Shown here in pieces: positions 8,670-41,326 of a DNA stretch of 50,508 nucleotides. The notes beneath the pieces were generated by a model. That model searched no databases and had not been told where the DNA came from. It saw only the letters and a program-made list of their open reading frames with translations. Every line of letters begins with the position of its first letter. Within the stretch, counting starts at the first letter, position 1. Origin of the DNA: a bacterium (GTDB lineage: Bacteria; Chloroflexota; Dormibacteria; Aeolococcales; Aeolococcaceae); NCBI GenBank assembly GCA_021847925.1, contig JAJZNI010000016.1:1-50508 (forward strand). The letters run 5' to 3'. The position numbers and the translations under genes are program-made.

Positions 8670-8932
8670 GCTCCCACCATCGCAGCAAGCGCAGCGAGGC
8701 GCCAGGGTCCAACTGCACGTGCCGGGACGGGACCGCCGTCGTGGCGCCGGGAGCGCCATCGAGCTCCCCGCCCGGCCGGAGCGCGGCCCGCGCGGGTCCC
8801 GCGACCTCGCACCGCTGCCGGGCTCGGCGCCCTCGGGGCGTCGGGGCGGCCTCCGTGCCCGAGGCGTGGAGCCGGACCCCGGGGCCTGCTCCCGGGACCG
8901 CGACGTGGGGGTCCTCGCCGGCGAGGGGGCCG

Positions 8933-11350
8933 TCAGGCCTCGATCACCTGGCCCAGGCGCTCCTCCTCCGCGGCGCGGTGCGCCACCAGCACGGCGTGCA
9001 GCCGCTGGAGCACCGGGCGGAAGGCGGCCTGGTCGCTCGGGGTCGGCCCGTTCGGGGCCACGTCGTCGAGGAGGCGGACGAGCGTGGCCGTGTCGCGGGC
9101 GATCTCGGCATGCTGGCGCCGCGCCGCGGCCAGCTCTCCGCCGCCGAGACCGTAATGGAGGAGCAGCGGGTACATCAGCTCCTCCTCCCTCCTCTCGTGG
9201 GGCAGCACCTCGTCGCAGAGGAACCGGCGAGCCTCCTCGAGCCTCCGGCGGGCCGCCGCCGGAGGGATCTCGCCGAGCGTGTCCGCGACCTCGATGAGGG
9301 CTCTGGTGCCCGCCCGCATGCCCCGGTGCTCGCGGAGGGTGCTCCTCCACTGCGACGCGGGCCCACCCGCGGCCCGGTGCTCGCGCGCCGCTCGCAGCGC
9401 GTTGAGGATGACCGCGGCGTCGATGACCTCCTGGAGAGCCGCACCGACCGCGGGGACGAGGAGGCCGATGCCGGCGAGCACCATGGCGCCCGCCGACAGA
9501 GCCATGCCCGCGGCCATGCTCTGGACCGCGATCGCCCGGCTCCGCCGCGCGATCTCCACCGCCTCCCCCACCCTCTCGATGCGGTCGGCCATCAGCACGG
9601 CGTCGGCGACCTCCGAGGACGCCGTCGCACCGCGCGCGCCCATGGCGACGCCCACGTCGGCGGCCGCCAGGGCGGGAGCGTCGTTGATGCCGTCGCCCAC
9701 CATGACGACGGTCCCGTGGCGCCTCTCCGCCTCGACGACCTCCAGCTTTCGCTCCGGCGTGCACTCCGCGTACGCGTCATCGAGGCCCGTGGCGGACGAT
9801 ACCTGACGGGCGGCGGCGGTCTGGTCCCCGGTCACCATCACGACCCGCCGGATGCCCGACCTGCGCAGGCGCTCGACCGCCAGGCGGGCATCGGGCCGGA
9901 CCGGGTCCTCGAGGACGAACGCCGCGCGCAACTCGCCGCCGACACCGAGGAACACGGCCACCTGCCCCTCGCGGGCGGCGCTCTGGCGGAGCTCGTCCGC
10001 CCACTGCGGGACCGAGCCGGCGCCGGCATAGACCGCCCTGCCCACGCGGAGCGTCTGGTCGCCGATCCGCCCGCAGATGCCCTGCCCGGGCTCCTCGCGC
10101 ACGGATCTCGGCAGCGCCAGGGCCTCCCCCGCGTCGCGGGCGGCCTCGACGATGGGCCGCGCCAGGGGGTGGGTGGAGGCCTGCTCCAGCGAGGCCGCGA
10201 ACCACAGCGCATCCGCGGATGAGATCCGCTCCGACGTCGCGACGCGCCGCAGCGTGGGGCGGCCCTCCGTCAGCGTGCCCGTCTTGTCGAACAGAACCGT
10301 GCGAGCTCGCCCCAGGACCTCGAGAGCCGAGCCGCTCTTCACCACCACGCCGCGGCGCGCACACCGCGACATGCCCCCGACCAGGGCGATCGGCGCGGCG
10401 AGGATCAGGGGACAGGGGGTGGCCACGACCAGCACCGCCACCGCCCGCGTCAGCGAATGCGCCGCGATCCCCGCCACGGCCGCGAGAGCGACGGTGACGG
10501 GGACGAACCACACCGCGAACCGATCGGCCATGCGCACGAGCGGCGCGCGGGACTGCTCCGCGGCGCGGACCAGGCGCACGAGCTGCGCGTAGGTCCCCTC
10601 GCTCGCCAGCGCGCTCGCCCGCATCCGGAAGGCACCCCCTCCGTTCAGCACCCCGCTGCGCACCGCGTCGCCGGGCAGGCGCTGCACCGGGACCGCCTCG
10701 CCGGTGAGCGGCGACTCGTCGAGGAAGGCGGGATCGACGAGGTTCCCGTCGAGGGGGACGACCTCGCTCGGGGCGACGAGGATGACGTCGCCCGGCCGGA
10801 TGGCGTCCACATCCACCGTCGTCACGGCGGCGCCCGCGAGCCGCCGCGCCGTCACCGGCGCGCGGTTGATGAGGGAGCTGAGCTCGCGCCGCGCCCGCCG
10901 CGACGCACGCGCCTCCAGAGCCCGCCCCGAGGCCAGCATCAGGGCGATGACGCTCCCGGCCAGCGTCTCCCCGATGGCGAGGGCACCCGCGAGGGCCAGC
11001 ACCGCCACCGCGTCGACGCTCACGTGCCCGCGCGCGACGTGGCGGACGAGATCGGCCCCGGAGAGCACCAGGGCCACGGCCGTGACCGCGCCCCACACCC
11101 AGCCGGCGGCGCTCGTGAGGCCCGCCCAGCGGAGACCACCCCCGGCAGCCATGGCCACGGCGGCCACCACCACGGCGGCGTCCATGGCGCGTCCCGGCAG
11201 GGGTCCGTGCCGGGAGCGGGCAGCCTCGCCGGACGCCGGTCGGCGCGGGGAGCCGGCGGCACCGCCTCGCGCAGGGCGCCTCTCACGCCCGTCGGGGGCG
11301 GGGGACGCACCGGGCCCGCGAAGGGACACCCGCGGGATCCCGCGCCACAT
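8933..11350 (-). CDS. P1B-type heavy-metal-translocating ATPase with TPCP transmembrane motif and C-terminal hemerythrin-like domain (P1B-5-like)
   Basis: DKTGTLT, MVTGD, GDGINDAPAL, and TM motif ATPCPL. No N-terminal metal-binding domain. C-terminal ~140 aa have PHERREEE and HRAAEEE (HxxxE). Start ambiguous: ATG at 11350 follows TGA-GGGAGG of the upstream gene; ATG at 11185 begins directly at the first TM segment. Confidence 0.9.
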   Translation of the reverse strand: MWRGIPRVSLRGPGASPAPDGRERRPARGGAAGSPRRPASGEAARSRHGPLPGRAMDAAVVVAAVAMAAGGGLRWAGLTSAAGWVWGAVTAVALVLSGADLVRHVARGHVSVDAVAVLALAGALAIGETLAGSVIALMLASGRALEARASRRARRELSSLINRAPVTARRLAGAAVTTVDVDAIRPGDVILVAPSEVVPLDGNLVDPAFLDESPLTGEAVPVQRLPGDAVRSGVLNGGGAFRMRASALASEGTYAQLVRLVRAAEQSRAPLVRMADRFAVWFVPVTVALAAVAGIAAHSLTRAVAVLVVATPCPLILAAPIALVGGMSRCARRGVVVKSGSALEVLGRARTVLFDKTGTLTEGRPTLRRVATSERISSADALWFAASLEQASTHPLARPIVEAARDAGEALALPRSVREEPGQGICGRIGDQTLRVGRAVYAGAGSVPQWADELRQSAAREGQVAVFLGVGGELRAAFVLEDPVRPDARLAVERLRRSGIRRVVMVTGDQTAAARQVSSATGLDDAYAECTPERKLEVVEAERRHGTVVMVGDGINDAPALAAADVGVAMGARGATASSEVADAVLMADRIERVGEAVEIARRSRAIAVQSMAAGMALSAGAMVLAGIGLLVPAVGAALQEVIDAAVILNALRAAREHRAAGGPASQWRSTLREHRGMRAGTRALIEVADTLGEIPPAAARRRLEEARRFLCDEVLPHERREEELMYPLLLHYGLGGGELAAARRQHAEIARDTATLVRLLDDVAPNGPTPSDQAAFRPVLQRLHAVLVAHRAAEEERLGQVIEA

Positions 11351-16887: not shown

Positions 16888-18036
16888 TCACACCACGTTG
16901 TGCTCGGGGATCAGCAACCCCCTGGCGAAGCGCTCGGGTGCGAACGGCGCCAGGTCGAGCCGGGGCTCCTCTCCGATGAACTGCTCGGCCAGCAGCAGCC
17001 CCACGGCAGGTGCCTGCTGAAAGCCGTGTCCGGAAAAGCCGCAGGCGCACCAGAATCCCTCCAGGGCCGACACGGGACCCAGGACCGGCTGGTGATCCGG
17101 CGTGGACTCATACAGACCGACCCACCCGGTGCGGACCCCGGCGTCGAGCAGCGCGGGGGCACGCCGTGACGCCACCTGCCCAATCTCCTCAAGGAAGCCC
17201 CACCTCACCTCGGTCGCGAAGCTGGGCACCTCCTCCCTGGCGCCCATGCCGAAGAGCAGGCCGCCGCCCTCGGGGTGGAAGTACAGGGACGTCGAGAAGT
17301 CGATCACCATCGGATGATCGTGCGGAATCCGCGTGAGCGGCTCCGTCACGAACACGTGGCGGGGGTAGGGCAGCACCGGTATCGATACACCCACCAGTTC
17401 GCCGATTCCTCCAGACCAGGCTCCCGCACAGGTGAACACCGCCGCCGTGGAGAGATCTCCTGCGCTGGTGCGCACGCCGGTCACCCGCCCCATTCGGGTG
17501 TCGATCCCCCGCACCTCCACTCCCTCAAGGATCCGTGCACCCATGCGTCGAGCCGCGGCCGCGTAACCGATCGTCACCTCGTGGGGGCTCGCGATGCCGT
17601 CGCTCGGGCAGAATGTGCCCCCCAGGACCCCATCCGTCTCGAGCAACGGGGTCAGCTCCCGGATCTCCGAGGTGCTCACCCAGCGCGCGTCGTCGACGCC
17701 GCAATCCCGCCACATCCCAAGCAACCCCTCGAATCTCTCCACATCGGCATCATCGGTGAGGACGAAGAGATAGCCGGTGCGCCGGAACGACGGGTCGACG
17801 CCGATCTCGTCGGGGAATCGCTCGAGCAGGCGGACCGCGAGCTGCTGGATCTCGACGTTGCGGCGATACGAGAACTGACGGCGGACTCCCCCGGCGCAGC
17901 GGCCCGTGGATTGAGACCCGAGAGTCTCGCGTTCACACAGGGTCACGCGCACCCCCCGCGCGCTCAGGTGATATGCGATCGAGCATCCGATGACGCCGCC
18001 GCCGATGATCACCACGTCTGCCCCGTCGCGCGTCAC
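16888..18036 (-). CDS. FAD-dependent oxidoreductase, DAO family (sarcosine oxidase beta / D-amino-acid oxidase-like)
   Basis: DVVIIGGGVIGCSIAYHL dinucleotide fold, C-terminal GFSGHGF. The GTG start at 18034-18036 overlaps the upstream stop as GTGA. The upstream part of ORF 16888..18324 is rejected. Confidence 0.9.
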   Translation of the reverse strand: MTRDGADVVIIGGGVIGCSIAYHLSARGVRVTLCERETLGSQSTGRCAGGVRRQFSYRRNVEIQQLAVRLLERFPDEIGVDPSFRRTGYLFVLTDDADVERFEGLLGMWRDCGVDDARWVSTSEIRELTPLLETDGVLGGTFCPSDGIASPHEVTIGYAAAARRMGARILEGVEVRGIDTRMGRVTGVRTSAGDLSTAAVFTCAGAWSGGIGELVGVSIPVLPYPRHVFVTEPLTRIPHDHPMVIDFSTSLYFHPEGGGLLFGMGAREEVPSFATEVRWGFLEEIGQVASRRAPALLDAGVRTGWVGLYESTPDHQPVLGPVSALEGFWCACGFSGHGFQQAPAVGLLLAEQFIGEEPRLDLAPFAPERFARGLLIPEHNVV

Positions 18037-19001
18037 CCGGGCTCGCCCTCGCGAAGCTCTCCACTCTCGTCCACCAGGCGGCGGTAGACAAGCCTCGCGA
18101 TCGCCCAATCCTGGGCGGCGACGCCCACGGACTTGAAGACGGTCCAACCTCCGCGAGGTGGCTGGCGCTGGCTGATGACCTGACCGAGCTCGACCAGGTC
18201 TGCCTCGCTGAGCCGTCCGGTTGCCATCGCCTGGATCAGGTCGCCCGCCTCCGCCAGCGCGGCGGGGAGGTGGTCGACGGCCACACACGCCGCGCGTGAG
18301 AGGACCTCGGCGGCCACCTCGCACATGTCGGGTCGGTATGCGCCGATCGCATTGATGTGGACGTGCTCGCCGAGGTCAGAGGCCTCGAACAGGGGACTCC
18401 TCGACGGGGTGGCACAGCAGATCACGTCAGCGCCGTGCACCGCCTCGCGAGTGCCTCCGACGACCGCCACCGCCAGGTGCTCATGCCGCCGGCGCAGCCG
18501 CCCCGCGAGGGCCTCCGCCGTGGCCCGATTCCGGCTCGCGATCCGCACCTCCTCGATGGGGCGAGCCGCCAGCACAGCCTCGGCCTGGTCCCAGGACTGC
18601 CCGCCCGACCCGAGTACCGCCAGGCAACGGGCGGCGGGCAGGGCCAGCGCGGCCGTGGCCGCCCCCGACGCGGCCCCGGTGCGCACGCGGGTCAGAGCCG
18701 CCCCGTCAATGTTGAGACGGGGAGTGCCCCTGGCATCGAACCAGACCGCCACTCCCTGGACCACCGGGACGCCGCTTCCCGCGTTGGTCTCGACCATCGA
18801 GACGAGCTTGGCGACCGCACCGTCCTCACCATCACAGCGGGCGATCATGCAGAGCAGTGAGCCGTCCCTCAACGCCATGCGCAGGGGCTGCTCCACCTCT
18901 CCGCGCGTCAGGGCGGTGAACACCCTCGCGACCTCGCGGATGGCATCTTCGACCGGTACAAGACGGCGCAGCGCGCGCTCGTCAACGAACAGGCCGGTCA
19001 T
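18033..19001 (-). CDS. Ornithine cyclodeaminase / mu-crystallin family protein (possible cyclic ketimine / pyrroline-2-carboxylate reductase)
   Basis: Family-typical N-terminus (LRRLVPVEDAIREVARVF) and Rossmann motif LAVLGSGGQS. Start ATG at 19001 (alternative GTG at 19022). Confidence 0.9.
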   Translation of the reverse strand: MTGLFVDERALRRLVPVEDAIREVARVFTALTRGEVEQPLRMALRDGSLLCMIARCDGEDGAVAKLVSMVETNAGSGVPVVQGVAVWFDARGTPRLNIDGAALTRVRTGAASGAATAALALPAARCLAVLGSGGQSWDQAEAVLAARPIEEVRIASRNRATAEALAGRLRRRHEHLAVAVVGGTREAVHGADVICCATPSRSPLFEASDLGEHVHINAIGAYRPDMCEVAAEVLSRAACVAVDHLPAALAEAGDLIQAMATGRLSEADLVELGQVISQRQPPRGGWTVFKSVGVAAQDWAIARLVYRRLVDESGELREGEPG

Positions 19002-19273
19002 CCGAGCGTGCCCTGCGCGCACGAACAGCCTGCAAAGGCCTGCCGGCTAGGCGGGAGGCCAGAGACTGACGCGAGTGCTCTCGTCCGGGGTCGCAGGGGG
19101 ATCTCCCACATCCGAGAAACCCGGATCACGAGCGCCCACGATGAACAGCTTGGAACTCCGGCCCCGGCGTCGCCACAGTGCCCGTGGCACCCGTGTCCAC
19201 AGCTTGAGGAGTGACCTGACGAAGCTCACCATCGCCCTCCCAACCTGAGGTCACCGCCGTCTCCATCACCGAT

Positions 19274-22493: not shown

Positions 22494-23276
22494 TCACCAG
22501 CGATACCGGTCGATCGCCATGAGCCCCGCGGTCTTGGCCCCGTCGATCGGGATCGCCGCACCGGTCACGAATGACGCCTCGTCGGACACCAGGTACATCA
22601 CGAGGCGCGCCACCTCCCCCGGTTCCCCGATGCGCCGCGCCGGGCAGACCGCGTGGGCACGGCGCCGGCCCTCGTCCTGACCACCCGTCGCGTCCCATTC
22701 GTCCCAGGTCATCTGGGTGGCGATGGGCCCCGGACAGATCGCGTTAACGCGCAGTCCCTGATCAGCGTATCCGAGCGCCAGCGAGCGGGTCAGGCTGACC
22801 ACGGCCGCCTTGGACGCAGCGTAGCCGACGCTCCCCGCCACCCCCACGAGCCCCGCCATCGAGGCGTTGTTCACGATCACGCCGCGAGACCTCAGCAGGT
22901 GCGGGAGGGCGTGCTTGCAGCACAGCCACGTGCCCTTCACGTTGGTGTCGAAGAGGAGATCCCAGTCATCCTCCCGCGGTCCGTCGAGCCCCTCGGCCAC
23001 CTCGACGCCGCTGTTGTTGAAGAGGATGTCGATCCTCCCGAGCTCGCCGGCCACCCTCTGCATCAGAGCCGCGACCGCGCCCGGGTCGGTGACGTCCGTC
23101 GCGGCGAAGATCGCGCGGGCCCCGCCCTCGCCGAGGGCCCGAGCCATGGCCTCGCCCCGCTCCCGGGAGCGGCCCGCGATGACGACCGAGGCTCCCGCTC
23201 CGGCGAGGAGCTCGGCGGTCGCCGCTCCGATGCCGCTCGCCCCTCCTGTGACCACCGCGACCCGTCCGGCGAGCAT
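22494..23276 (-). CDS. Short-chain dehydrogenase/reductase (SDR)
   Basis: VTGGASGIGAATA, NNSG, YAASKAAV. Start shares one base with the upstream stop (TGATG). Confidence 0.9.
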   Translation of the reverse strand: MLAGRVAVVTGGASGIGAATAELLAGAGASVVIAGRSRERGEAMARALGEGGARAIFAATDVTDPGAVAALMQRVAGELGRIDILFNNSGVEVAEGLDGPREDDWDLLFDTNVKGTWLCCKHALPHLLRSRGVIVNNASMAGLVGVAGSVGYAASKAAVVSLTRSLALGYADQGLRVNAICPGPIATQMTWDEWDATGGQDEGRRRAHAVCPARRIGEPGEVARLVMYLVSDEASFVTGAAIPIDGAKTAGLMAIDRYRW

Positions 23277-24373
23277 CAGGCCACCGCCGGAGCGCTGAGC
23301 AGGGCGCGCTCCTGATCCGGCCCCCAGATGTCACCGACGGTGAAGCCCTCGGGAAACGGGTCATCGGCGTCGACGACGTACTGCGTCATCGCGGTCACGA
23401 AGGCCTGGCCGCTCACCGCCGGCACCACCGCCGGGTGCCCGCCGACCGTCGTCGTGCCCACCACGCGACCGGTGAACACGGTGCCCATGATCCCCTCATG
23501 GACGAAGTCCTCTCCGATGCCCAGCCGGCCCTTGGCATGGAGGCATGCCATCCGGGCGCAGGTGCCGGTACCGCAGGGAGAGCGGTCGAGGATCCCCGTC
23601 CAGGTCTCGGGCCGGTCCCAATCCAGCGAGCCCGTCGAGACGACCACCGTGTTCTTGAGGGTGGCGTCGGGCCTGGTCGGCGGGGCGGAGAACTGGGTGA
23701 CGGTGACGCCGGAGATGTCCGGGTTCTCCGGGTGGACAGCCGGGAGCTGCTCGCGCGTCGCGGCCTTGATCATCTCGCCGAGCCGGACGATGTCATGGCC
23801 CTCGTCAGGGGTCAGCCTCAGGCCCAGCGCACGGGCCTCGGTGATGACGAACATCATCCCCCCGTAAGCGACGTCCACCGTCACCGTCCCCAGCTGGGGC
23901 ACCTCCACGTTGGCATCGAGGTGGAGGGCGAAGGCCGGGACGTTCTGGAAGGTGACGCGCCGGACGCTCTGGTCCTGAACCTCGGCGCGGATCCGCACCA
24001 GTCCGGCGGGGGCCTCCAGCGCGAACTCCGTGACGGGCTCCTGCATCGGCACCATCCCCGTCTCCAGCAGCACCGTGGCCACGCACATGGTGTTGCTCCC
24101 CGACATGGGCGGGTACTCCTGCGGCTCCATGATCACGTAGCCCGCCACCGCCTCGGGATCGCTGCTGGGCAGGATCAGGTTGCAGCAGCTCCCCGGGTAG
24201 CCACGCGGCTCTTTCAGCATGAGCCTGCGAAGCCCATCGCCATGCATCTCGAGATACCGCTTCTTCTCGAACATGGTCGTACCCTGGACGTTCAGGACGC
24301 CCCCCGTGATGACCCGGCCGTGGTTGCCCCCCGCGTGGGCATCCACCGCCGTGATGCATCGCGCCAGCTTCAT
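23276..24373 (-). CDS. Proline racemase superfamily protein, atypical Ser/Cys catalytic pair (PRS-A)
   Basis: DAHAGGN..RV, PMSGSNTMC in place of PMCGH, DRSPCGTG retained, C-terminal GDIW. GAGGAG lies 6 nt upstream of the ATG. Confidence 0.9.
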   Translation of the reverse strand: MKLARCITAVDAHAGGNHGRVITGGVLNVQGTTMFEKKRYLEMHGDGLRRLMLKEPRGYPGSCCNLILPSSDPEAVAGYVIMEPQEYPPMSGSNTMCVATVLLETGMVPMQEPVTEFALEAPAGLVRIRAEVQDQSVRRVTFQNVPAFALHLDANVEVPQLGTVTVDVAYGGMMFVITEARALGLRLTPDEGHDIVRLGEMIKAATREQLPAVHPENPDISGVTVTQFSAPPTRPDATLKNTVVVSTGSLDWDRPETWTGILDRSPCGTGTCARMACLHAKGRLGIGEDFVHEGIMGTVFTGRVVGTTTVGGHPAVVPAVSGQAFVTAMTQYVVDADDPFPEGFTVGDIWGPDQERALLSAPAVA

Positions 24374-32008: not shown

Positions 32009-32041
32009 CCTGCTGCTTGGTCGCTTTCCCCGGCCTTGCGG

Positions 32042-32965
32042 TCAGGGCTCCTCGTGCGCTCCTCCGTCGGCCAGGAGGAAGAGCGCGGAGTGATCCAGAT
32101 CCCCGCGATCGCTGTCGACAAGCTGCTGAAACCCGGCCAGGGCGGCCTCGAGGGCGGGAGTCGGGACCCCGTAGGCGGCCGCCGACCGGCGGGCGATCCC
32201 CGCGTCCTTGAGGTGGAGGCGAGCGCGGAACCCGGGACTGAACGACCGGTCGAGCATGCGCTGCCCATGGACCTCGAGGATGCGGCTCGCGGCAAAGCCG
32301 CCCAGCAGCGCCTCGCGGACCTTCGCCGGGTCGACCCCCGCGGCCGTGGCGAGCGCGAGGGCCTCGGCGACGGCCTCGATGGTCGCCCCCACGACCAGCT
32401 GATTGGCGGCCTTCGCGACCTGTCCCGCGCCGACCTCACCGATGTGCACGACCTTGGCTCCGAGAACGTCCAGGACGGGCCTGGCCCGCGCCACATCCGC
32501 CTCTCCCCCTCCCACCATGATGGAGAGGGTTCCGCCGATGGCGCCCTGCTCACCCCCGGACACCGGCGCGTCCACCATCCCCACGCCACGGGCTCGCATC
32601 TCCTCGGCGATGCCGCGGGTGGCGATGGGATCCACCGTGCTCATGTCGATCAGCAGCAGACCGGGCCGGCTCGCCTCCAGGAGCCCCCCCGGCCCACGCA
32701 CCACCCGCTCCAGGTCCGGCGTGTCCGGCAGCATGGTGATGACCGCGTCACTGCGGGCTGCGACGTCGGCGGGTCCGGCTCCGCGCTCGGCACCCTCGGC
32801 CACCAGCGCGTCGACGGGCCCCCGGCTGCGCGAGTGGACCACCAGGTTGTAGCCCGCATGCAGGAGGTTCAGCGCCATCGGGCGTCCCATGATCCCCAGG
32901 CCGATGAAGCCGATGCGGTCCCGCCCCGCGGTGAGCGGTGGCTCAGACATCGATTCGCCATCCAT
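32042..32965 (-). CDS. glxR: 2-hydroxy-3-oxopropionate (tartronate semialdehyde) reductase
   Basis: Near full-length resemblance to E. coli GlxR/GarR as I recall it: IGFIGLGIMG, DAPVSGGE.GA..GTLSIMVGG, GGFA.SRILEVHG, DHSAL. Alternative ATG at 32950. Confidence 0.9.
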   Translation of the reverse strand: MDGESMSEPPLTAGRDRIGFIGLGIMGRPMALNLLHAGYNLVVHSRSRGPVDALVAEGAERGAGPADVAARSDAVITMLPDTPDLERVVRGPGGLLEASRPGLLLIDMSTVDPIATRGIAEEMRARGVGMVDAPVSGGEQGAIGGTLSIMVGGGEADVARARPVLDVLGAKVVHIGEVGAGQVAKAANQLVVGATIEAVAEALALATAAGVDPAKVREALLGGFAASRILEVHGQRMLDRSFSPGFRARLHLKDAGIARRSAAAYGVPTPALEAALAGFQQLVDSDRGDLDHSALFLLADGGAHEEP

Positions 32966-33734
32966 ACTCGGTCACCCACCTGAAGCTCTCGTCCGTCGGC
33001 ACCGTGGGACGGTACTCCAGCCCAACCCGCCCCCCATAGCCGAGCTGATCCAACTCGCTGAGGATGCGCCCATAGGCAAGCTCGCCGGATCCGGGCTCCC
33101 CCCGCTCGGGGGAATCGGCGATCTGGACGTGCCCCACACGGTCGATGAGCCGCCGCAGCGTCGCGAGCACGTTGCCCTGGGTCCGCTGGACATGGTACAC
33201 GTCGAACTGGAGGCGCAGGTGCGGCGACCCCACGTCGGCCAGCATCCGCTCCGCCACGCCGAGGCCGTCGACGAAGAATCCCGGGGTCTCGATCGGGTTG
33301 AGCTGCTCGATGTGCAGGGTGATGCCGCTCCCGGCAACCTGCTGTGCCGCCCAGCGCAGGTTCTCGACGGCGCACTCGTACTGGTCATCCCAGGGCAGCG
33401 AGCCGTCCCGCAGCCCCACCAGGCAGTTGAGCTTGCGGGTGCCCAGCTCGGTGGCGTAGCGGACGGCCGTGTCCACTCCCTGGCGGAACTCGGCCCGCCG
33501 CTCGGGGAGGACCGCCATCCCACGTTCCCCAGCGGACCAGTCCCCGGCGGGGAGGTTGAAGAGATCGAGGGCCAAGCTGGCGTGCCCCAGCACGTCGCGC
33601 AGATCCTCCGCTCCGTACTCGTACGGGAAGAGGAACTCCACGGCGCGGAAGCCCACACGAGCGGCCGCCCCGAACCGCTCGGGAAACGGGAGCTCGGCGA
33701 AGAGCATGCTCAGGTTGGCGGAGAAGCGGGGCAC
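32943..33734 (-). CDS. hyi: Hydroxypyruvate isomerase
   Basis: MPRFSANLSMLF, NLPAGDW.AGERG, HRGEPG-like SPERGEPGSGE. Colinear with E. coli Hyi. Confidence 0.93.
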   Translation of the reverse strand: MPRFSANLSMLFAELPFPERFGAAARVGFRAVEFLFPYEYGAEDLRDVLGHASLALDLFNLPAGDWSAGERGMAVLPERRAEFRQGVDTAVRYATELGTRKLNCLVGLRDGSLPWDDQYECAVENLRWAAQQVAGSGITLHIEQLNPIETPGFFVDGLGVAERMLADVGSPHLRLQFDVYHVQRTQGNVLATLRRLIDRVGHVQIADSPERGEPGSGELAYGRILSELDQLGYGGRVGLEYRPTVPTDESFRWVTEYGWRIDV

Positions 33735-33745
33735 GTTCCGGCGGC

Positions 33746-35083
33746 CTATCCGAGGACCGCGCGATCCGCTATCTCAAGCGCCGCGTCCAGTATCTCAAAG
33801 CCCTGTGCCAGCTCATCCTCGCTGATGCAGAGAGGGGGGTTGGTGTGGATCGACCCGCCGACGATCTGCGTGTAGAGCCCGTGCTCCCGGAGGTGGCTGC
33901 TGATCGCCTTCATCTCGTCGCTCGTGCCACCGAACGGGGCGATCGGCGTGTAGGGGTCCTGCCGGCGCACGAGGTCGATGATGCCGAAGAGGCCGAGGTT
34001 GCGATGCGCGCCGACACTCGGGTGCCGCGCCGCCAGCCGCTCGTGGTGCCCGCGCATCACCGGACCCAGGGCGGCGGAGCGTTCGATGAGCCCGTCCTCC
34101 TCGTACACCCTCAGGGTGGCCAGGGAGGCCGCCAGGGAGATGGGGTGGCTCGAGTACGTCAACCCGCCGGAGAACATCGTGGTCTCAAACCTCTCGGCGA
34201 CGTGGCGCCGCATCGCCACCGCGCCCAGGGGCAGGTAGGACGATGTGATCCCCTTGGCCATGGTCATGAGGTCGGGCACCGTGTCCCAGTGATCGATCGC
34301 GAACCATCTGCCGCTGCGCCCGAAGCCGGCCATCACCTCGTCCGCGACCATGAGGATGCCGTGCCGGTCGCAGAGCTCCCGGACACCCTGGATGTAGCCG
34401 TCGGGCGGGATCAGCACGCCGTTGGTCCCCACGATCGTCTCCAGGAAGACGGCGGCGATGGTGTGCGGACCCTCGTACCTGATGACATCCTCGAGGCCCT
34501 GCAGGCTCTCCTCCACGGGCCGTGGCTCCCTCTCTCCCCAGCGGTGGGTGTCGGGATACCTGACCACCCCCACCAGGCCGGGCTCGTTGGGCCAGCGGCG
34601 CGGGTCGCCGGTGAGGCTCATGGCCCCGAAGGTGGCGCCGTGGTAGGCCCGGTAGCGGGCCAGCACCTTGTAGCGCCCCGTGTACAGGCGGGCCAGCTTC
34701 ATGGCGTTCTCCACCGCCTCCGCCCCCCCCAGGGTGAAGAACACCTTGTCCATGTCACCGGGCAGGATCGACGCCAGCTTCTCTCCGAGCCGGGCGCGGA
34801 TCTCGGTCACGAAGGCCGGCTGCACGAACTGCAGCCGGGTGGCCTGCTCGGTGATCGCGTCGACCACGCGCTGGTCTCCATGCCCGATGTTGACGCACAT
34901 GAGCTGGCTGCAGAAGTCGAGGATCGCGCTGCCCTCGGGCGTGTACAGCCACACACCCTTCGCATGGTCGATGGCGATCGGATCCACCGCGCCCTGGATC
35001 GACCAGGAGAAGAAGGTGTGCTGCTTCGATAGCCGGACCATCTCCTCGCTCGTCATCGCACGCCGAGCCGCTGTCACAGTCAT
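33746..35083 (-). CDS. Class-III PLP aminotransferase (omega-amino acid:pyruvate / taurine-pyruvate type)
   Basis: ADEVMAGFGRSGRWF, PLP Lys in MAKGITSSYLPLG. 445 aa. Confidence 0.9.
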   Translation of the reverse strand: MTVTAARRAMTSEEMVRLSKQHTFFSWSIQGAVDPIAIDHAKGVWLYTPEGSAILDFCSQLMCVNIGHGDQRVVDAITEQATRLQFVQPAFVTEIRARLGEKLASILPGDMDKVFFTLGGAEAVENAMKLARLYTGRYKVLARYRAYHGATFGAMSLTGDPRRWPNEPGLVGVVRYPDTHRWGEREPRPVEESLQGLEDVIRYEGPHTIAAVFLETIVGTNGVLIPPDGYIQGVRELCDRHGILMVADEVMAGFGRSGRWFAIDHWDTVPDLMTMAKGITSSYLPLGAVAMRRHVAERFETTMFSGGLTYSSHPISLAASLATLRVYEEDGLIERSAALGPVMRGHHERLAARHPSVGAHRNLGLFGIIDLVRRQDPYTPIAPFGGTSDEMKAISSHLREHGLYTQIVGGSIHTNPPLCISEDELAQGFEILDAALEIADRAVLG

Positions 35084-35195: not shown

Positions 35196-36338
35196 TCAAC
35201 GAGATCCCCTGGGGCCCACGACCTCGAACAGGGGATCTCCCAGCGCCTCGGGGTCCACGTCGACGCCGAGCCCGGGCGCTGCGGAGGCCGAGGCCCTCCC
35301 GTCCTTCAGGGTCGCGCCTCCCGAGCGGGCGATGGGACGGTGGGAGGCGGCGGTGAGGTGGGTGGCCGTCACATGGGATGCCGCCAAGAAGTTGTCGGGG
35401 CGGCAGCTCGCCGCGAGCTGGCTGATCCCGGCGGTGGCGAGGTCCCCGCCCATCGGCTCGTCGATCATCACCATCAGCCCCGCGCTCTGGGCCAGGTCGC
35501 GAATCCGTGCGGCCTTCGTCAGGCCACCCACCCGCGCGGGCTTGATGTTGATGGCGTCCGCGGCGCCGCGCTTGAGGCAGGCGAGCAGGTCGTTGACGTC
35601 GCAGACAAGCTCGTCGATGGTCACGGGGAGCTCGGTTCGCTGGCGGACCTGCGCCAGCTCCTCCATGGTGCGGCACGGCTGCTCCACGTACGTGTCACGT
35701 CCACGGATGGCGGCGATGAATCGCAGAGCCTGGCCCATCGTCCAGCCGCGGTTCGCATCGCTCGTCACGAAGTCGGCCCGCCCCGCCACGGCGTCGAGCA
35801 CCGCATGCACACGGGTGGCGTCCTCGATCGGGTCCTCGCCCAGCTTCAGTTGCCAGCAACGGTAGCCGGAGCCGGCCATGGTCGCCGCCTCTCTGGCCAT
35901 CGCCTCCGGGCTGGCGAGGGTCAGGGGGTGGAAGACAGGGTAGTCGTCCTGATGGCGGCCACCCAGCAGCTTGTGCACCGGAAGCCCCAGCACCCTCCCT
36001 CGCGCGTCCCACAGAGCCGCATCGATCGCCGCCTTGCCGGGGAGGTGGCCGCGAAGCGCCGCATCCATGCGGTCGAGAACCACGTCGTTCGCCATCAGGT
36101 CGGCGCCGACCACGATCGGGGCCAGCTCCCTCACGGTGGCCTGCACACTCCCGGCGAAGCCCTCGATGTAGTTGCCTCCCAGAGTGCACGCCTCGCCGTA
36201 GCCCGTGACGCCGCCCTCTGTGGCCACCTCCACCACCGTCGTCTCCATGCGCGTCAGCGTCCGTCCGTGCGACATCGTGTAGCTACCCGTCGCGAGGGGC
36301 AGGTCGAGAGAGTAGCAGCGCAGCGACGTCACCTTCAT
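35196..36338 (-). CDS. Enolase-superfamily enzyme (mandelate racemase / muconate-lactonizing subgroup-like)
   Basis: Metal ligands in SDANRGW, YVEQPC and TIDELV. Barrel Lys in NIKPARVGG. WQLKLG sits where KxK is expected. The ATG at 36336-36338 overlaps the PRS-B stop as ATGA. The upstream part of ORF 35196..36707 is rejected. Confidence 0.9.
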   Translation of the reverse strand: MKVTSLRCYSLDLPLATGSYTMSHGRTLTRMETTVVEVATEGGVTGYGEACTLGGNYIEGFAGSVQATVRELAPIVVGADLMANDVVLDRMDAALRGHLPGKAAIDAALWDARGRVLGLPVHKLLGGRHQDDYPVFHPLTLASPEAMAREAATMAGSGYRCWQLKLGEDPIEDATRVHAVLDAVAGRADFVTSDANRGWTMGQALRFIAAIRGRDTYVEQPCRTMEELAQVRQRTELPVTIDELVCDVNDLLACLKRGAADAINIKPARVGGLTKAARIRDLAQSAGLMVMIDEPMGGDLATAGISQLAASCRPDNFLAASHVTATHLTAASHRPIARSGGATLKDGRASASAAPGLGVDVDPEALGDPLFEVVGPRGSR

Positions 36339-37438
36339 GCGAGAACCTCCACCGACGGCCGCCGAGCCACGCTCTCGGATGCATCCGCCCAGATATCCCC
36401 GAGCGCGTAGCCCTGGGGAAACGGGTCCCCCTCGTCCAGCACGTAGGTCGACATCCCGGTAACCCACGCGCGCCCCGATATCGTCGGCACCACGGCGCGC
36501 AGCTTCCCCACGTGCGTCTCCGCGATCAACGTACCGGTGAAGTGGGTCCCGAGAATCCCCTCGTGAACGAACTTCTCGCCAATGCGGAGACGGCCCTCGG
36601 ATTCGAGCACGGCCATCCGCGCCGAGGTCCCCGTCCCGCAGGGAGAGCGATCGAGCGCTCCGGTCCAGGACTCGGGCCGACCCGGGTCGACCGCACCCGT
36701 GGTGCAAATCACCGCGTTCCGGCCACCCACGCCAGGAGCGTCGGCCGGTGCATGCAGCATCGTCAGCGTGATGCTGTTGATCGCCGGGTTATCCGGGTGC
36801 CGCACGGCCAGCTCCTCCTGCGCGATCCTCTTGATGATGGCCCCGGCCCTGACGATCGCCCGGGCATTGGAAGACGTCAACTCAACCCCGGCCTCCGCGG
36901 CGGATGCCAGCACAAAGAACTGGCCACCGAACGCCACGTCCACGGTGACACGCCCGAGCTCAGGCACCTTGAGCACCCTCTTCTCGTGCACCACGAACGC
37001 CGGCACATTGCGAAGCGTCACCCTCTCGACCTTGGTCGAGCGCACCTCAGCCTCGACCTCGATGAGACCAACTGCAGTCTCCAGCACCAGTCTGGTCACG
37101 GGCTCGGTCGCCGGAAGCGCACCCGTCTCCAGCAGCGCCGTGACCACGCACATCGTGTTGCTGCCCGACATCGGGTTGAAACCACTCTGCTCCATCACGA
37201 TCAACCCGGCGTCAGCGGCGGCCGTCGTGGGCGGGAGCACAAGGCTGCAGCACATCGCGGGATATCCGCGCGGCTCCTGCAGCATCAGTCGCCTCAGCCA
37301 GTCCAGGTTCGCTCGGCAGTACTCCAAGCGCTCGGCCATTGACCGTCCCTGGACGCGGAGGGCACTGCTGAGGAGCACCCGACCAGGCTCCCCCTCAGCG
37401 TGAACGTCGATCGCGCTGACCATGAACCGCGGCCGCAT
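36335..37438 (-). CDS. Proline racemase superfamily protein, atypical Ser/Cys catalytic pair (PRS-B)
   Basis: DVHAEGEPGRV, PMSGSNTMC, DRSPCGTG, C-terminal GDIW. Alternative ATG at 37423. Confidence 0.9.
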   Translation of the reverse strand: MRPRFMVSAIDVHAEGEPGRVLLSSALRVQGRSMAERLEYCRANLDWLRRLMLQEPRGYPAMCCSLVLPPTTAAADAGLIVMEQSGFNPMSGSNTMCVVTALLETGALPATEPVTRLVLETAVGLIEVEAEVRSTKVERVTLRNVPAFVVHEKRVLKVPELGRVTVDVAFGGQFFVLASAAEAGVELTSSNARAIVRAGAIIKRIAQEELAVRHPDNPAINSITLTMLHAPADAPGVGGRNAVICTTGAVDPGRPESWTGALDRSPCGTGTSARMAVLESEGRLRIGEKFVHEGILGTHFTGTLIAETHVGKLRAVVPTISGRAWVTGMSTYVLDEGDPFPQGYALGDIWADASESVARRPSVEVLA

Positions 37439-37449
37439 CCCATCCGCTC

Positions 37450-38313
37450 CTACTTCACCTTCAGAGCGTCAACGAACTCGCGCAGCCCCGCGCTCGAGGG
37501 GTTGCTGAAGGCGAGCGAGGGCTCCTCCTGCTCAAGGATCTGCCCGTCCTCCACGAACATCACCCGGTCCGCCGCCTTTGAGGCGAAGGCCATATCGTGG
37601 GTGACGATCACGCAGGCGATGCCATCGTTGCGCGCCAGGTTGGTCAGGATGTTGAGCACCCCGGAGGCGATGGGGGGATCCAGGGCGGAGGTGATCTCGT
37701 CGCACAGCATCACCCGCGGCTGCATCATCAGGGCCCGCGCGATGGCCACGCGCTGGCGCTGACCTCCGGACAGTTCCGAGGGCCGGCTGTGCATCCGGTC
37801 GCGCAACCCGACCTCGTCCAGCGCCGCCTCGGCACGGGAACGGATCTCGCTCTCCGGTTGCCTGAGGACCCGCCGCGGGCCGAGAGCCAGGTTCTTGTAC
37901 ACGCTCATGTGAGGCCACAGCGTGTACTGCTGGAATACCATTCCCACCAGCCTCCGCTGTGTCGCCCACCCATCCAGGTGCTTTCCATCCTTGATCACGG
38001 TGAGGCCGCTGATATCCAATTCCCCGGTTTCGGGCTGGGCGAGCCCGGCGATGACACGCAGAAGCGTGCTCTTGCCGGAGCCACTCTTCCCCATCACAAC
38101 CAGCATCTCGCCCGGGGTGACCTCGAAATCCACCTCGCGGAGGACACACCGCTGTCCGAAGTACTTGGAGATGCCGCGCCCCGCCACGATCGCACCACCG
38201 CCGTTTCCCTGCCGCGTCGCCCCGGGCGCTGCCTGGGCATGCACCACGCTCATCATCTCCTCTGCACGCCTCCCGGTCGCGGCTTCACCACCACTCGCGT
38301 CGCTTGCCACCAT
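37450..38313 (-). CDS. Polar amino acid ABC transporter, ATP-binding protein
   Basis: Walker A GKSGSGKST, signature LSGGQRQRVAIARAL, Walker B VMLCDE. GGAGGAG lies 7 nt upstream of the ATG at 38313. Confidence 0.95.
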   Translation of the reverse strand: MVASDASGGEAATGRRAEEMMSVVHAQAAPGATRQGNGGGAIVAGRGISKYFGQRCVLREVDFEVTPGEMLVVMGKSGSGKSTLLRVIAGLAQPETGELDISGLTVIKDGKHLDGWATQRRLVGMVFQQYTLWPHMSVYKNLALGPRRVLRQPESEIRSRAEAALDEVGLRDRMHSRPSELSGGQRQRVAIARALMMQPRVMLCDEITSALDPPIASGVLNILTNLARNDGIACVIVTHDMAFASKAADRVMFVEDGQILEQEEPSLAFSNPSSAGLREFVDALKVK

Positions 38314-38355
38314 GTCTCTTCTCCTCCGATCACCGAGCCGGACACCACGCCCGCG

Positions 38356-39123
38356 TCAACCTCCGAAGCCCCCAAAGAGCAGATGCGTGGGCAGCAGCTT
38401 GAGCATGAGACTCCGGGCTCCCCGCGGCCGGTTCGGGGTCTGCCCCTCCTGCCCAGCGAGCATGCGACGCTCGATGGCGCTGGTGATCAGGGTGGCCGGG
38501 AAGGCGATGATGAAATATATGGCGGCGATCGTCGTGTAGATCTCCATCGGCCGGAAGAGGAGGCTGGACTCGATGTTTCCCTTGTAGGTGAGGTCGGCAA
38601 CCCCAAGCGTAGAGACCAGGGAACTGTCCTTGAACAGGCTGATGTTCAGCGACAGGATCACGGGGATCTGCTGCCGCAGGGCCTGGGGTACAGTGACAAA
38701 GCGGATCTGGTCGACGCGCCTGAGGCCGACCACCTGTGCCGCTTCCAGGTGCTCCTTTGGCACCGCCTGGAATCCGGCGCGGTACGCCTCGGCCATGAAG
38801 GCGGTGAGGTTGGCGCTGAGGGCGATCACCACCGCAATGAATGCCGGGAGGTTGATCCCAAGCACCACGGGGAGGGCGTAGTACACCCAGATGAGCTGCA
38901 CGAGCAGGGGCGTTCCGCGGAAGATCTCGATGTACAGCTGAGCCGGCCACCGAATGATCGTGACGGTTGCCATGCGCGCGAGGGCCAGGGGCACAGCCAC
39001 CACCATGCTGACGGCGATGGTCACCACGGTGATCTCGAGCGTCAACTCCAAGCCCTGGAGCAGCGATGGGAATATCGGGGGGATGATGCTCCAGTCGAAC
39101 TGGTATGCGAGGAGACCGCCCAT
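38356..39123 (-). CDS. Polar amino acid ABC transporter permease (HisM/GlnP type)
   Basis: EAA loop EAAQVVGLRRVDQIRFVTVPQALR. About 5 TM segments. Confidence 0.9.
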   Translation of the reverse strand: MGGLLAYQFDWSIIPPIFPSLLQGLELTLEITVVTIAVSMVVAVPLALARMATVTIIRWPAQLYIEIFRGTPLLVQLIWVYYALPVVLGINLPAFIAVVIALSANLTAFMAEAYRAGFQAVPKEHLEAAQVVGLRRVDQIRFVTVPQALRQQIPVILSLNISLFKDSSLVSTLGVADLTYKGNIESSLLFRPMEIYTTIAAIYFIIAFPATLITSAIERRMLAGQEGQTPNRPRGARSLMLKLLPTHLLFGGFGG

Positions 39124-39136
39124 CAGCGCCTATCCA

Positions 39137-40030
39137 CTACGACGACGACGACGACAGCAGCATGCTCCCCAGGTCGGAGGTGCTGGCGATGTATCCGGCT
39201 GCTGCCATGGCACGACCGATCTTGCCTGCGGCGACGGCGTTGTTGATGATGATGTCGATCGCCTCGAGCGACGCGGGATCGACCGTCGCCGGCACGCCAT
39301 AGTCCACGTTGTGGACGAAGATCGAGGGGCTGGGCACCACTATCTTGTACTGGGGATCCTGCTTGACCTGGACCTCGGCGTCACCCAGGTCGGTGAACTC
39401 CGAGCCGACGCGGCCGCTCTGCAGCGCAAGGAAGGCGTGCGGCCAGTCGGGAAGCTTGGTCTCCGGGGGGGCCGGGCTGATCGCCTCGAGGGCGAGGTCC
39501 TCGGCACTGCCGGCGGCCACCGAGATGGACTTACCGGACGCGAAGATGGCGGCCGAGGTCCTGTAGGGGGTGTTCGCCGGGACCACGAAGACGCCGGGGT
39601 AGGTCCAGATCGCCGACGTGTACTGGATGGCCAGGGCACGCTGCCCAGTCGCGTCCAGGTCCGCCGCGAAGTCGTACTTGCCGGCCTCGAGACCGGTGAC
39701 GATGTTCTGCCACGTGGTGTCAACGGTCACCAACTTGACGTTGAGGTCCTTGGCCAGCTGTTGCGCTGGGATCAGGTCCGGTCCGGTGCAGGCACCGTTG
39801 GCTGCGATGTCGATGGTCGGCGGCGAGGTGGCGCACCCGACGGTGAGCTTTCCAGCGCTCTTGATCTGGTTCAGGAAGCTGTAGGGGGTGGCCAGCGGAC
39901 CTGCGCTCGCGCCGGCGCTCCCACCCCCTCCCCCAATCTTGGCGCCGCCGAACCCGGCGAGGCCGCCGATGACGATCACGCCGATGACGCCCCAAACGAT
40001 TTGATTCGTGCGATTCATGTGCGCACTCAC
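39137..40030 (-). CDS. ABC transporter substrate-binding protein (family 3, polar amino acids), N-terminal membrane anchor plus Gly-rich linker
   Basis: Anchor IVWGVIGVIVIGGLAGFGG, then linker GGGGGSAGASAG, then an SBP_bac_3-like body. Ends in five Ser codons (TCG x5). Alternative ATG at 40018. Confidence 0.85.
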   Translation of the reverse strand: MSAHMNRTNQIVWGVIGVIVIGGLAGFGGAKIGGGGGSAGASAGPLATPYSFLNQIKSAGKLTVGCATSPPTIDIAANGACTGPDLIPAQQLAKDLNVKLVTVDTTWQNIVTGLEAGKYDFAADLDATGQRALAIQYTSAIWTYPGVFVVPANTPYRTSAAIFASGKSISVAAGSAEDLALEAISPAPPETKLPDWPHAFLALQSGRVGSEFTDLGDAEVQVKQDPQYKIVVPSPSIFVHNVDYGVPATVDPASLEAIDIIINNAVAAGKIGRAMAAAGYIASTSDLGSMLLSSSSS

Positions 40031-40098: not shown

Positions 40099-41106
40099 TC
40101 AGGCCACCAGGAATCCATGCCGCATGGGATCGTCAGGATCGAGGGCGAAGGTGCTCTCTCCCGTGATGAAGGCTGATCCCGTCACCTCCACCCTCACCGC
40201 GGGCAGGTCCCCCACCCGCGCCTTCTCGACGGCACGGGCACGGAAGAGCGCCCCGGTGATGCTCTCGTGCACGAACTCCTCCCCCATCTCCAGCTCCCCC
40301 CTGGCTACGAGGGTCGCCACCTTGGCGCAGGTGCCGGTCCCGCACGGCGACCGATCCGCCCCACCCGGTCGGATTATGACGAGGATCCGAGCGTCGGCGC
40401 CGTCAGCCACCGGGGGGCCGAAGTACTGGATGTGAGTGAGGCCTCGGATGTCGGGGAGGGTCGGGTGCGCCACATCCACGGCAGCATCGAAGGCGGGGCG
40501 CAGCAGCTTGGCGGTTCCGATTGCCTCGGCGGCGTGCTCGATGTCGAGTGTGAGCCCGACCTGGGCCGCCTCGGTGATCGCATAGAAGTTGCCGCCGTAG
40601 GCGATGTCGGCGCGCACGCGCCCGTGGTGCGGGAGGTCGATCACGACGTCTCGGTGGAGGAGAAAGGAGGGAGCGTTCACGAAGCTGACCTCCTGGGCCC
40701 GGCCGTCACACACCTTGACCCGCGCCTCGACGAGACCGGCCGGCGTGTCCAACCGGATCTCCGTGTGGGGCTCCCTCACCGTCACCGCGCCGGTCTCGAC
40801 CAGGACCGTGCACAGGCCTATGGTGTCGTGCCCGCACATCGGGAGGTACCCGCTCGTCTCTATAAAGAGGACACCGACGTCGGCGCGGGGATCGCAGGGC
40901 GCGGTGAGGATGCAGCCGGACATGACGCTGTGGCCACGCGGCTCGAACATGAGTGCGGTGCGCACCCAGTCCAGCCGGCGCTGGAGATCGAGCATCTTCT
41001 CCAGCATCGTGCCCCCCTCCAGGGGTGGCACCCCCGAGAGCACGGTCCGGGTTGGGTTGCCGCCCGTGTGGCTCTCAATGGTGCGAAAGACGTGGTCAGC
41101 TCGCAT
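40099..41106 (-). CDS. Proline racemase superfamily protein, canonical Cys/Cys pair (4-hydroxyproline 2-epimerase or proline racemase; PRS-C)
   Basis: ESHTGGNPTR, PMCGHDTIG, DRSPCGTGTCAK. 335 aa. Confidence 0.9.
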   Translation of the reverse strand: MRADHVFRTIESHTGGNPTRTVLSGVPPLEGGTMLEKMLDLQRRLDWVRTALMFEPRGHSVMSGCILTAPCDPRADVGVLFIETSGYLPMCGHDTIGLCTVLVETGAVTVREPHTEIRLDTPAGLVEARVKVCDGRAQEVSFVNAPSFLLHRDVVIDLPHHGRVRADIAYGGNFYAITEAAQVGLTLDIEHAAEAIGTAKLLRPAFDAAVDVAHPTLPDIRGLTHIQYFGPPVADGADARILVIIRPGGADRSPCGTGTCAKVATLVARGELEMGEEFVHESITGALFRARAVEKARVGDLPAVRVEVTGSAFITGESTFALDPDDPMRHGFLVA

Positions 41107-41301
41107 CGAGGATACCTGCGCACCAGTGGCCGGGCCCAGGGGGCTGCCCGTCGCCGCGTACCGTCCGCCAGCCCCCCCGGCCAGCCCCGGCTGACCCCTG
41201 GAAGCTCAGCTCCCCCGGTCTCTCGGCGGCCTCTGCGGCCCACCGAGGGGCCACCCAGCCCACATCCCACATCACGTGCCCGTCCCGGATGTTGAATTCT
41301 G

Positions 41302-41326
41302 CTTGTCCGTCTGACAGACTGACAAG
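41302..41326. promoter_or_regulatory. 25-bp near-perfect palindrome, candidate GntR-family operator
   Basis: CTTGTCCGTCTGACAGACTGACAAG: 11 of 12 arm positions pair around centre 41314. It lies in the divergent gap between PRS-C and the ALDH gene, immediately upstream of a TAGGAT -10-like hexamer (41331-41336). Confidence 0.5.

Follow-up and report, generated by a model that had tools for sequence, protein, structure and literature searches.

What does a proline-racemase-superfamily (PRS) enzyme do when its gene runs, through a stop/start overlap, directly into that of an enolase-superfamily enzyme? The question is raised by a 50,508-nucleotide stretch of DNA (contig JAJZNI010000016.1, 71% G+C; hereafter the window) from a bacterium of the Dormibacteria (Chloroflexota), in which a PRS gene, PRS-B, overlaps such a partner downstream of an amino-acid importer. 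A first-pass annotation of the sequence had read the two genes as a dedicated epimerase/dehydratase module of a kind not yet described. The pair has a clear gene structure and family membership, intact catalytic residues, an adjacency conserved in other genomes and a hydroxyproline-catabolic context, and it is a variant of the LhpL/LhpJ arrangement described in hydroxyproline clusters, not a new kind of module. On balance, we think it probable that the enolase dehydrates cis-3-hydroxy-L-proline, working in parallel with PRS-B on different stereoisomers of 3- and 4-hydroxyproline. The features of the pair are as follows.

36335..37438, minus strand: PRS-B, 367 amino acids, proline-racemase superfamily with a Ser/Cys dyad (PMSGSN / DRSPCGTG), from Pfam PF05544 and the translation
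35196..36338, minus strand: enolase-superfamily (MLE subgroup) gene, 380 amino acids, LhpJ/HpbD group, with K165, D194, E219, D242 and K266
36335..36338, minus strand: stop/start overlap ATGA of PRS-B and the enolase gene, read directly (TCAT on the plus strand)
36346..36350, minus strand: Shine-Dalgarno-like GGAGG within the 3' end of PRS-B and 7 nt ahead of the enolase ATG, read by eye

Both genes are real, as the first-pass annotation had it, and both lie on the minus strand, which it left unstated; it also omitted a third PRS gene, of Cys/Cys type, in the window. The ATGA overlap was found where it had been reported, and its ATG is supported as the true start of the enolase gene by homologues and by the Labrenzia aggregata structure 4MGG, which align from residue 1. 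The sequence upstream of this start is GGTGGAGGTTCTCGC, followed immediately by ATG.

PRS-B matches the Pfam Pro_racemase profile PF05544 over positions 2-324 of 325 (E 4.9e-110) and carries the motifs NPMSGSNTMC, DRSPCGTG and a C-terminal LGDIW. Its PMSGSNTMC / DRSPCGTG / GDIW signature had been said to recur in a paralogue, PRS-A, and all three motifs are present in both proteins. Aligned with 4lb0 and 4q2h, PRS-B combines MSGS with DRSPCGTG, the hallmark of the Ser-Cys type. This is not an unknown type, as Ser/Cys members are already described as 4HypE/3HypE (PMC4113996) and, in PaLhpL, as a dehydratase/2-epimerase of trans-3-hydroxy-L-proline. T3LHypDht was the top NCBIfam model for both PRS-A and PRS-B; this Ser/Thr-type dehydratase identity was rejected for PRS-B, whose second catalytic residue is Cys and not Thr and whose score of 314.6 bits lies under the cut-off of 550. 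The Cys was present in 120/120 of the closest homologues of PRS-B and the Ser motif in 110/120, the search pattern having missed the other 10; as judged from these sequences, the dyad characterizes the PRS-B clade as a whole and is not a quirk of one gene. In a quick neighbour-joining tree, built without support values and good for grouping only, PRS-B grouped with enolase-adjacent PRS genes of three other loci (L001, L020 and L029), and this enolase-linked clade was sister to a Streptomyces Ser/Cys clade. The Streptomyces sister member, besides which no other complete PRS gene was called in the surrounding ~21 kb, lies inside a DAO-DHDPS-PRS-aldehyde dehydrogenase (ALDH) operon, an arrangement of the type assigned to 4-hydroxyproline epimerase in S. 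lividans (PMC4113996). Among the 4HypE structures in the data-deposition paragraph of the same paper, PDB 4K8L (Ochrobactrum) reads Ser/Thr (PMSGSN / DRSPTGTG), like the t3HypD 4K7G, a dyad that fits the remark there that cluster 3 is functionally heterogeneous (PMC4113996).

The partner protein contains MR_MLE_N and MR_MLE_C domains (Pfam) and has the features that define the MLE subgroup: an N-terminal capping domain and a barrel domain, with metal ligands where strands 3, 4 and 5 end and a lysine at the ends of strands 2 and 6. The metal ligands DAN (D194), EQP (E219) and DE (D242), the barrel lysine in NIKP (K266) and the QLKLG reading, here within WQLKLG (Q163-L164-K165), had all been recognized correctly, and Q163-L164-K165, D194, E219, D242 and K266 are invariant in an alignment (A1) of the enolase with eleven homologues. 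These catalytic positions coincide with Asp194, Glu219, Asp242, Lys164 and Lys266 as listed for pdHpbD (PMC3950512). The top PDB match by sequence was 4MGG (274 bits, phmmer) and the top fold match was likewise 4MGG (Foldseek E 8e-42, TM 0.90, for a predicted model with pLDDT 88); the next PDB matches were 2QDD/3FVD, 2RDX and 2PCE (Roseovarius nubinhibens), and then HpbD 2PMQ, 4H2H and 4E8G. NF043002 was the best NCBIfam model by far, at 320.7 bits, and the JGI names of many enolase homologues were counted as support for the placement. Profiles and structure, the subgroup check that had been proposed, place the protein in the LhpJ/HpbD group and not with the dipeptide epimerases or OSBS. As candidate identities, dipeptide epimerase, OSBS and NSAR were rejected, with PDB and NCBIfam matches of merely 60-112 bits versus 274 for 4MGG. 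The suspicion that QLKLG signals a non-standard acid/base set was misplaced: QLK instead of KxK is no anomaly, because motifs lacking the first lysine are the rule across the HpbD/LhpJ group (FQLKVG in 4MGG, FQIKVG in 2RDX and LQVKLG in HpbD 2PMQ; SxK in 2QDD and 2PS2) and the catalytic lysine is the second one, the invariant K165. QLK occurs in 120/120 LhpJ-clade proteins and in 109/120 proteins of the window clade. Both proteins of the pair come, as had been stated, from families that act on proline derivatives.

Whether the adjacency recurs in other genomes had been posed as a check, and it does. Enolase and PRS genes adjoin immediately in the independent contigs L001, L020/L021, L022, L029 and L030, in both gene orders, and again in the Roseibium locus L025. 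The one contig scan, which relied on two peptide patterns, gave only 19 loci, so that adjacency frequencies are indicative and not a census. L001, a Chloroflexi metagenome-assembled genome (MAG), has a six-gene order identical to that of the window (Cys/Cys PRS, binding protein, permease, ATPase, PRS-B, enolase). L020/L021 is 81% identical and has the window's gene order, and L020 keeps the 4-nt overlap (8901..10004 / 10001..11131); in L001 and L020, too, the three importer genes lie between two PRS genes. The enolase gene immediately adjoins a PRS gene in L029, the order is reversed in L022 and L030, and the neighbour in L030 is a PRS-A orthologue (76% identical). One gene separates enolase and PRS in L028, and at several further loci a PRS gene lies 2-9 kb away or nearer. 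Wherever the adjacency occurs in the window clade (window, L001, L020, L022, L029, L030), the PRS is of Ser/Cys type. Recurrence in independent contigs, together with the rarity of PRS genes in genomes, puts the linkage far beyond chance. Nor is the pair undescribed, as the first-pass annotation had supposed: the Roseibium enolase, 96% identical to 4MGG, is directly followed by a PRS gene.

The surroundings of the pair define an operon and, beyond it, an island.

37450..40030, minus strand: polar-amino-acid-type ABC importer (ATPase 37450-38313, permease 38356-39123, SBP_bac_3 binding protein 39137-40030), from Pfam
40099..41106, minus strand: Cys/Cys PRS (PMCGH / DRSPCGTG), which opens the operon and is a candidate for either canonical 4-hydroxyproline 2-epimerase or proline racemase
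41296..41325, minus strand: weak match, by consensus only, to a sigma-70-like promoter upstream of the gene for the Cys/Cys PRS (1 found versus 0.5 expected)
23276..24373, minus strand: PRS-A, paralogous Ser/Cys PRS, 51% identical to PRS-B with the same three motifs, located by tblastn
18033..19022, minus strand: ornithine-cyclodeaminase (OCD)-family protein (Pfam OCD_Mu_crystall), candidate delta1-pyrroline-2-carboxylate reductase

The importer lies directly upstream of PRS-B, as Pfam domains and an 11-nt gap bear out, and gaps across the importer region are 11-42 nt. The core operon runs from the Cys/Cys PRS, whose orthologues hold the same position in L001 and L020, through binding protein, permease, ATPase and PRS-B to the enolase. 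Seven further genes come after this core on the same strand, among them, next to the enolase, a class-III aminotransferase, a TIM-barrel isomerase-like protein, an HIBADH-like reductase, an aldehyde dehydrogenase and a second aminotransferase, with small gaps or overlaps throughout the minus-strand run and nothing convincing within the operon in a terminator scan. The open reading frame (ORF) at 41096-42190 was treated as spurious, since it matches no family and runs, in a different frame, over part of the true PRS gene.

The window holds three proline-racemase-family genes in all, PRS-A lying 12 kb from the pair, and one enolase-family gene. Elsewhere in it, a DHDPS-family gene adjoins that of a GntR/FCD regulator, and there are two more aldehyde dehydrogenases as well as FAD oxidases, one of them of DAO type and with a Pyr_redox_2/BFD partner. 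The DHDPS, ALDH, DAO and OCD families are components of bacterial hydroxyproline pathways (PMC4113996, PMC5144071), which places the PRS-B/enolase pair in a large hydroxyproline-catabolic island. Genes of the D-hydroxyproline oxidase, DHDPS-type deaminase and alpha-ketoglutarate semialdehyde dehydrogenase types are thus within the window, none of them adjoining PRS-B. The role of the OCD family in the 3-hydroxyproline branch is taken from PMC4113996; the window protein scores 165/163 bits against the NCBIfam delta1-pyrroline-2-carboxylate reductase models, under their cut-offs.

From this setting we infer the substrates and every reaction step of the pair. PRS-B and the enolase would be a translationally coupled pair in a long operon for hydroxyproline uptake and catabolism. 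The Ser of PRS-B would take the alpha-proton from an L-hydroxyproline and the Cys would reprotonate the opposite face, giving 2-epimerization of trans-4- and/or trans-3-hydroxy-L-proline with, possibly, as in PaLhpL, some dehydration of the 3-hydroxy isomer. In the enolase, D194, E219 and D242 would hold the Mg2+ that stabilizes the enolate of the 3-hydroxyproline carboxylate, while K165 and K266, on opposite faces, would abstract and deliver the alpha-proton; on a 3-hydroxyproline isomer, the 3-OH would be eliminated to give delta1-pyrroline-2-carboxylate. The OCD-family reductase encoded elsewhere in the window may then convert this imine to L-proline, completing the 3-hydroxyproline branch.

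Several observations weigh against transferring the LhpJ function to the window enolase. Its identity to LhpJ (4MGG) is 39%, equal to that with 2QDD, and 4MGG is itself nearer to 2RDX (42%). Both 2QDD and 2RDX come from R. nubinhibens, for which cis-3-hydroxy-L-proline does not support growth (PMC4113996 Table 3); an identity of 39% that is shared with a protein from such a non-grower makes function not simply transferable. The 320.7 bits against NF043002 fall short of its equivalog cut-off of 500, and PRS-B likewise lies under the cut-off of every NCBIfam equivalog model, reaching 274.9 bits against a cut-off of 376 for the 4-hydroxyproline 2-epimerase model PRK13971 and less for the other epimerase models. 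To our knowledge, the literature holds no measured activity for any member of either clade. The window enolase clade, of Actinomycetota, Chloroflexi and Dormibacteria, is populous (49-94% identity), its named members being from Mycobacterium, Nocardia, Nocardioides, Actinomadura and Cryptosporangium as well as Chloroflexi and Dormibacteria MAGs, and no enzyme of known structure compared with it exceeds 39% identity. Its loops are clade-specific and internally conserved:

20s loop: Y-x-M-S-[HRG]-G-R in the window clade, Y-S-W-S-N-G-N in the LhpJ clade
50s loop: GEACTLGxNY[IL][ED]GF in the window clade, AECCPLGSAYLPSY in the LhpJ clade
strand 7: D-[ED]-P-[MQ] in the window clade, E-D-T-W in the LhpJ clade

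WSNGN occurs in 113/120 and EDTW in 120/120 LhpJ-clade proteins, and the window clade has neither; loops such as the 20s loop and strand 7 normally set specificity in the enolase superfamily. In L030, a gene at 8795-9244 (minus strand) that encodes an AcnX swivel domain (PF01989) lies near the enolase, and the AcnX family includes the other known type of dehydratase for cis-3-hydroxy-L-proline, which hints at non-redundant roles. Finally, the actinobacterial enolase-ALDH-DHDPS operons fit the 4-hydroxy branch better than the delta1-pyrroline-2-carboxylate branch. Judged from motifs and identities, the window enolase is best called LhpJ-like, that is, a member of the group outside the LhpJ equivalog; its clade is distinct from that of LhpJ.

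The actinobacterial loci have a make-up of their own. In Nocardioides, Nocardia and Cryptosporangium (L027 9192-13529; L012-L016), a GntR-enolase-ALDH-DHDPS unit is accompanied by oxidases of FAD or GMC type and by an ABC transporter of peptide type. No PRS gene was found within up to 10 kb on either side of many actinobacterial enolases in such enolase-ALDH-DHDPS operons, in which a reductase was not searched for. In these PRS-less units the enolase may stand in for the epimerase, or its substrate may be a dihydroxyproline.

Against the parallel action that we favour, it is possible, at a tentative level, that the divergent enolase is a dehydratase for cis-3-hydroxy-D-proline made by its partner, which is the most attractive version, or alternatively an entry enzyme for 4-hydroxy- or dihydroxyproline. 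In the former case, which we regard as unlikely, PRS-B would epimerize trans-3-hydroxy-L-proline to cis-3-hydroxy-D-proline and a D-specific enolase would dehydrate this to delta1-pyrroline-2-carboxylate. Such a sequence would explain both the strict Ser/Cys association, every enolase-adjacent PRS of the clade being Ser/Cys and thus epimerase-competent, and the loops of the window-clade enolases, which are unlike those of LhpJ; the genuine LhpJ of Roseibium is paired with a Ser/Thr PRS, a type assigned as a pure dehydratase. The Ser-Cys PaLhpL mainly yields cis-3-hydroxy-D-proline, a dead end that accumulates in P. aeruginosa, and the stop/start overlap suggests coupled, stoichiometric expression. 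However, we found no enolase-superfamily enzyme acting on a D-3-hydroxyproline described in the literature, the several FAD oxidases of the window could handle D-epimers instead, and members of the clade exist without a nearby PRS gene. Of the two-step module proposed by the first-pass annotation, the hydroxyproline families and the conserved adjacency stand; the strict sequence of steps was overstated, and parallel action may apply. The alternative in which the enolase is an enolase-type 4-hydroxyproline 2-epimerase or a 3,4-dihydroxyproline dehydratase seems rather more doubtful, as does the route it implies, from the product via delta1-pyrroline-4-hydroxy-2-carboxylate and alpha-ketoglutarate semialdehyde to 2-oxoglutarate. 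It draws on Nocardioides, Nocardia, Cryptosporangium and Mycobacterium, where the enolase is followed by ALDH and DHDPS-family genes with FAD oxidases and GntR alongside, often with no PRS gene in up to 10 kb on each side, and on the AcnX-type dehydratase of cis-3-hydroxy-L-proline, which also converts 2,3-cis-3,4-cis-dihydroxy-L-proline to 4-hydroxy-pyrroline carboxylate (PMC5144071). Yet the enolases of those loci share only ~49-53% identity with the window enzyme, so that theirs may be a different isofunctional group, the window subclade always has PRS genes that already provide epimerase activity, and the nearest characterized relative is a 3-hydroxyproline enzyme.

Two further explanations are far less probable. 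That the enolase is the (hydroxy)proline betaine 2-epimerase HpbD, in an operon for betaine catabolism, is suggested by strong matches to 2pmq/4h2h (~195 bits, TM 0.90) and by metal ligands and lysines that coincide with those of pdHpbD, but identity is 32% and the strand-7 DDAW is DEPM/Q in the window clade; with no conserved counterpart of Trp312 (pdHpbD, PMC3950512) and no Rieske demethylase domain among the scanned window ORFs, we rejected this very improbable reading. Hardly credible is an incidental neighbourhood of unrelated functions that happen to share an operon. ATGA overlaps of 4 nt are commonplace in GC-rich operons, and very common across GC-rich genomes, and for some members of the clade no PRS gene lies next door; nevertheless, immediate adjacency, found in either gene order and in six independent contigs, between genes of which PRS is rare, and the same linkage in the characterized Roseibium cluster, argue otherwise. 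Parallel action of an LhpJ-like dehydratase and PRS-B thus remains the reading that we favour.

Other genes of the window have features worth recording. The five genes 3' of the enolase (29115-35083, minus strand) include a TIM barrel that is xylose-isomerase-like and a reductase that is 2-hydroxy-3-oxopropionate-reductase-like; none comes from a described hydroxyproline pathway, and the first four are kept after the enolase in L020, not in L001. One idea is that 5-amino-2-oxopentanoate, the ring-opened form of pyrroline-2-carboxylate, is transaminated to 2,5-dioxopentanoate and then oxidized. A DapB-type reductase (42915-43742, minus strand; 175.6 bits, over the dapB equivalog cut-off of 122) lies between an ALDH and an SDR inside the island, a position kept in L001 and L020, and could be a cyclic-imine (pyrroline-carboxylate) reductase and not an enzyme of lysine biosynthesis. 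An SDR gene (22494-23276, minus strand) overlaps the PRS-A stop by 1 nt, and SDR homologues lie directly 3' of the enolase or PRS gene in L001 (8129-8821), L029 (2967-3755) and L030 (3010-3798); the SDR is a conserved third partner that possibly oxidizes or reduces a ring hydroxyl or oxo group. At the island edge (49250-50470, minus strand), a protein with Ala_racemase_N and D-Ser-dehydratase-like domains, weakly matching the 3-hydroxy-D-aspartate aldolase BhcC, is a possible D-hydroxy-amino-acid enzyme, and a similar protein is found near the enolase in a Streptosporangiaceae MAG (L028 13758-14840). Of two Glu/Leu/Phe/Val-dehydrogenase-family genes (1037-2416, plus strand; 20702-22177, minus strand), the second, flanked in the PRS-A operon by the SDR and an amine oxidase, is an unusual member for hydroxyproline clusters. 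A P-type (E1-E2) ATPase with a C-terminal hemerythrin domain (8933-11419, minus strand) is an unusual fusion unrelated to the gene pair.

Collagen, the cell walls of plants and peptide antibiotics supply hydroxyprolines as a large source of carbon and nitrogen, and nearly every stereoisomer requires its own entry enzyme in bacteria. With three PRS genes, an enolase, and oxidase, deaminase, aldehyde-dehydrogenase and reductase genes, the window is an unusually complete hydroxyproline island. Its remaining interest lies in the enolase clade and its consistent Ser/Cys partner, a pair that bears on the in vivo role of Ser/Cys PRS proteins and on the disposal of their D-3-hydroxyproline. It also serves as a pointer to a populous, conserved clade of enolases, to which annotation pipelines give either a generic name or one transferred from a 39%-identical enzyme.

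Among known systems, the closest is that of LhpJ from L. aggregata, an MLE-subgroup enzyme that uses Mg2+ and two lysines to 2-epimerize cis-3-hydroxy-L-proline reversibly and to dehydrate it irreversibly (PMC5144071). Q-L-K165, D194, E219, D242 and K266 stand at identical positions in the window enolase, and the Roseibium hydroxyproline cluster also has an SBP_bac_3 importer, DHDPS, ALDH and DAO, with the enolase adjoining a PRS gene. Its order in L025 is GntR, ABC importer, DHDPS, PRS (Cys/Cys), ALDH, DAO, enolase and PRS (Ser/Thr, PMSGSNSIC / DRSPTGT). We take A0NXQ8 to lie between A0NXQ7 and A0NXQ9, for which the listing of both flanking accessions as characterized PRS proteins and the Roseibium locus give indirect support only. 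The window differs in that the adjoining PRS is Ser/Cys, not Ser/Thr, and in that its enolase is 39% identical, with clade-specific motifs in the 20s loop, 50s loop and strand 7. Compared with HpbD (2PMQ, 4H2H, 4E8G/4J1O), the window enolase shares the subgroup, the QxK motif, the metal ligands and the two lysines, and HpbD too has a proline derivative as its substrate, on which it carries out a 1,1-proton transfer (as 4R-hydroxyproline betaine 2-epimerase/proline betaine racemase); it differs by its 32% identity and by a betaine-binding Trp that is not conserved in the window clade.

For PRS-B, the nearest parallels are B9JQV3 (PDB 4LB0), in which bound trans-4-hydroxy-L-proline has Ser and Cys on its opposite faces and which is a 4HypE with 3HypE promiscuity (PMC4113996), placed by the text of that paper in cluster 8 or 9, orange, and the Ser-Cys PaLhpL/PA1255, which converts trans-3-hydroxy-L-proline to cis-3-hydroxy-D-proline and, weakly, to pyrroline-2-carboxylate (Watanabe 2016). 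LhpL proteins comprise Ser-Cys and Ser-Thr types (Watanabe 2016, supplementary discussion). Like B9JQV3 and PaLhpL, PRS-B has Ser in its first motif and Cys in DRSPCGTG, and its gene lies in a hydroxyproline cluster; unlike them, it belongs to an enolase-linked clade of its own, is ~35-40% identical to the crystallized Ser/Cys members and reads PMSGSN where 4LB0 has ASSGSN. With the Ser/Thr proteins of T3LHypDht type, PRS-B shares the PMSGSN first motif and, in the known Roseibium system, the place beside the enolase gene, whereas its second residue is Cys and theirs is Thr, so that PRS-B retains the residue for two-base epimerization.

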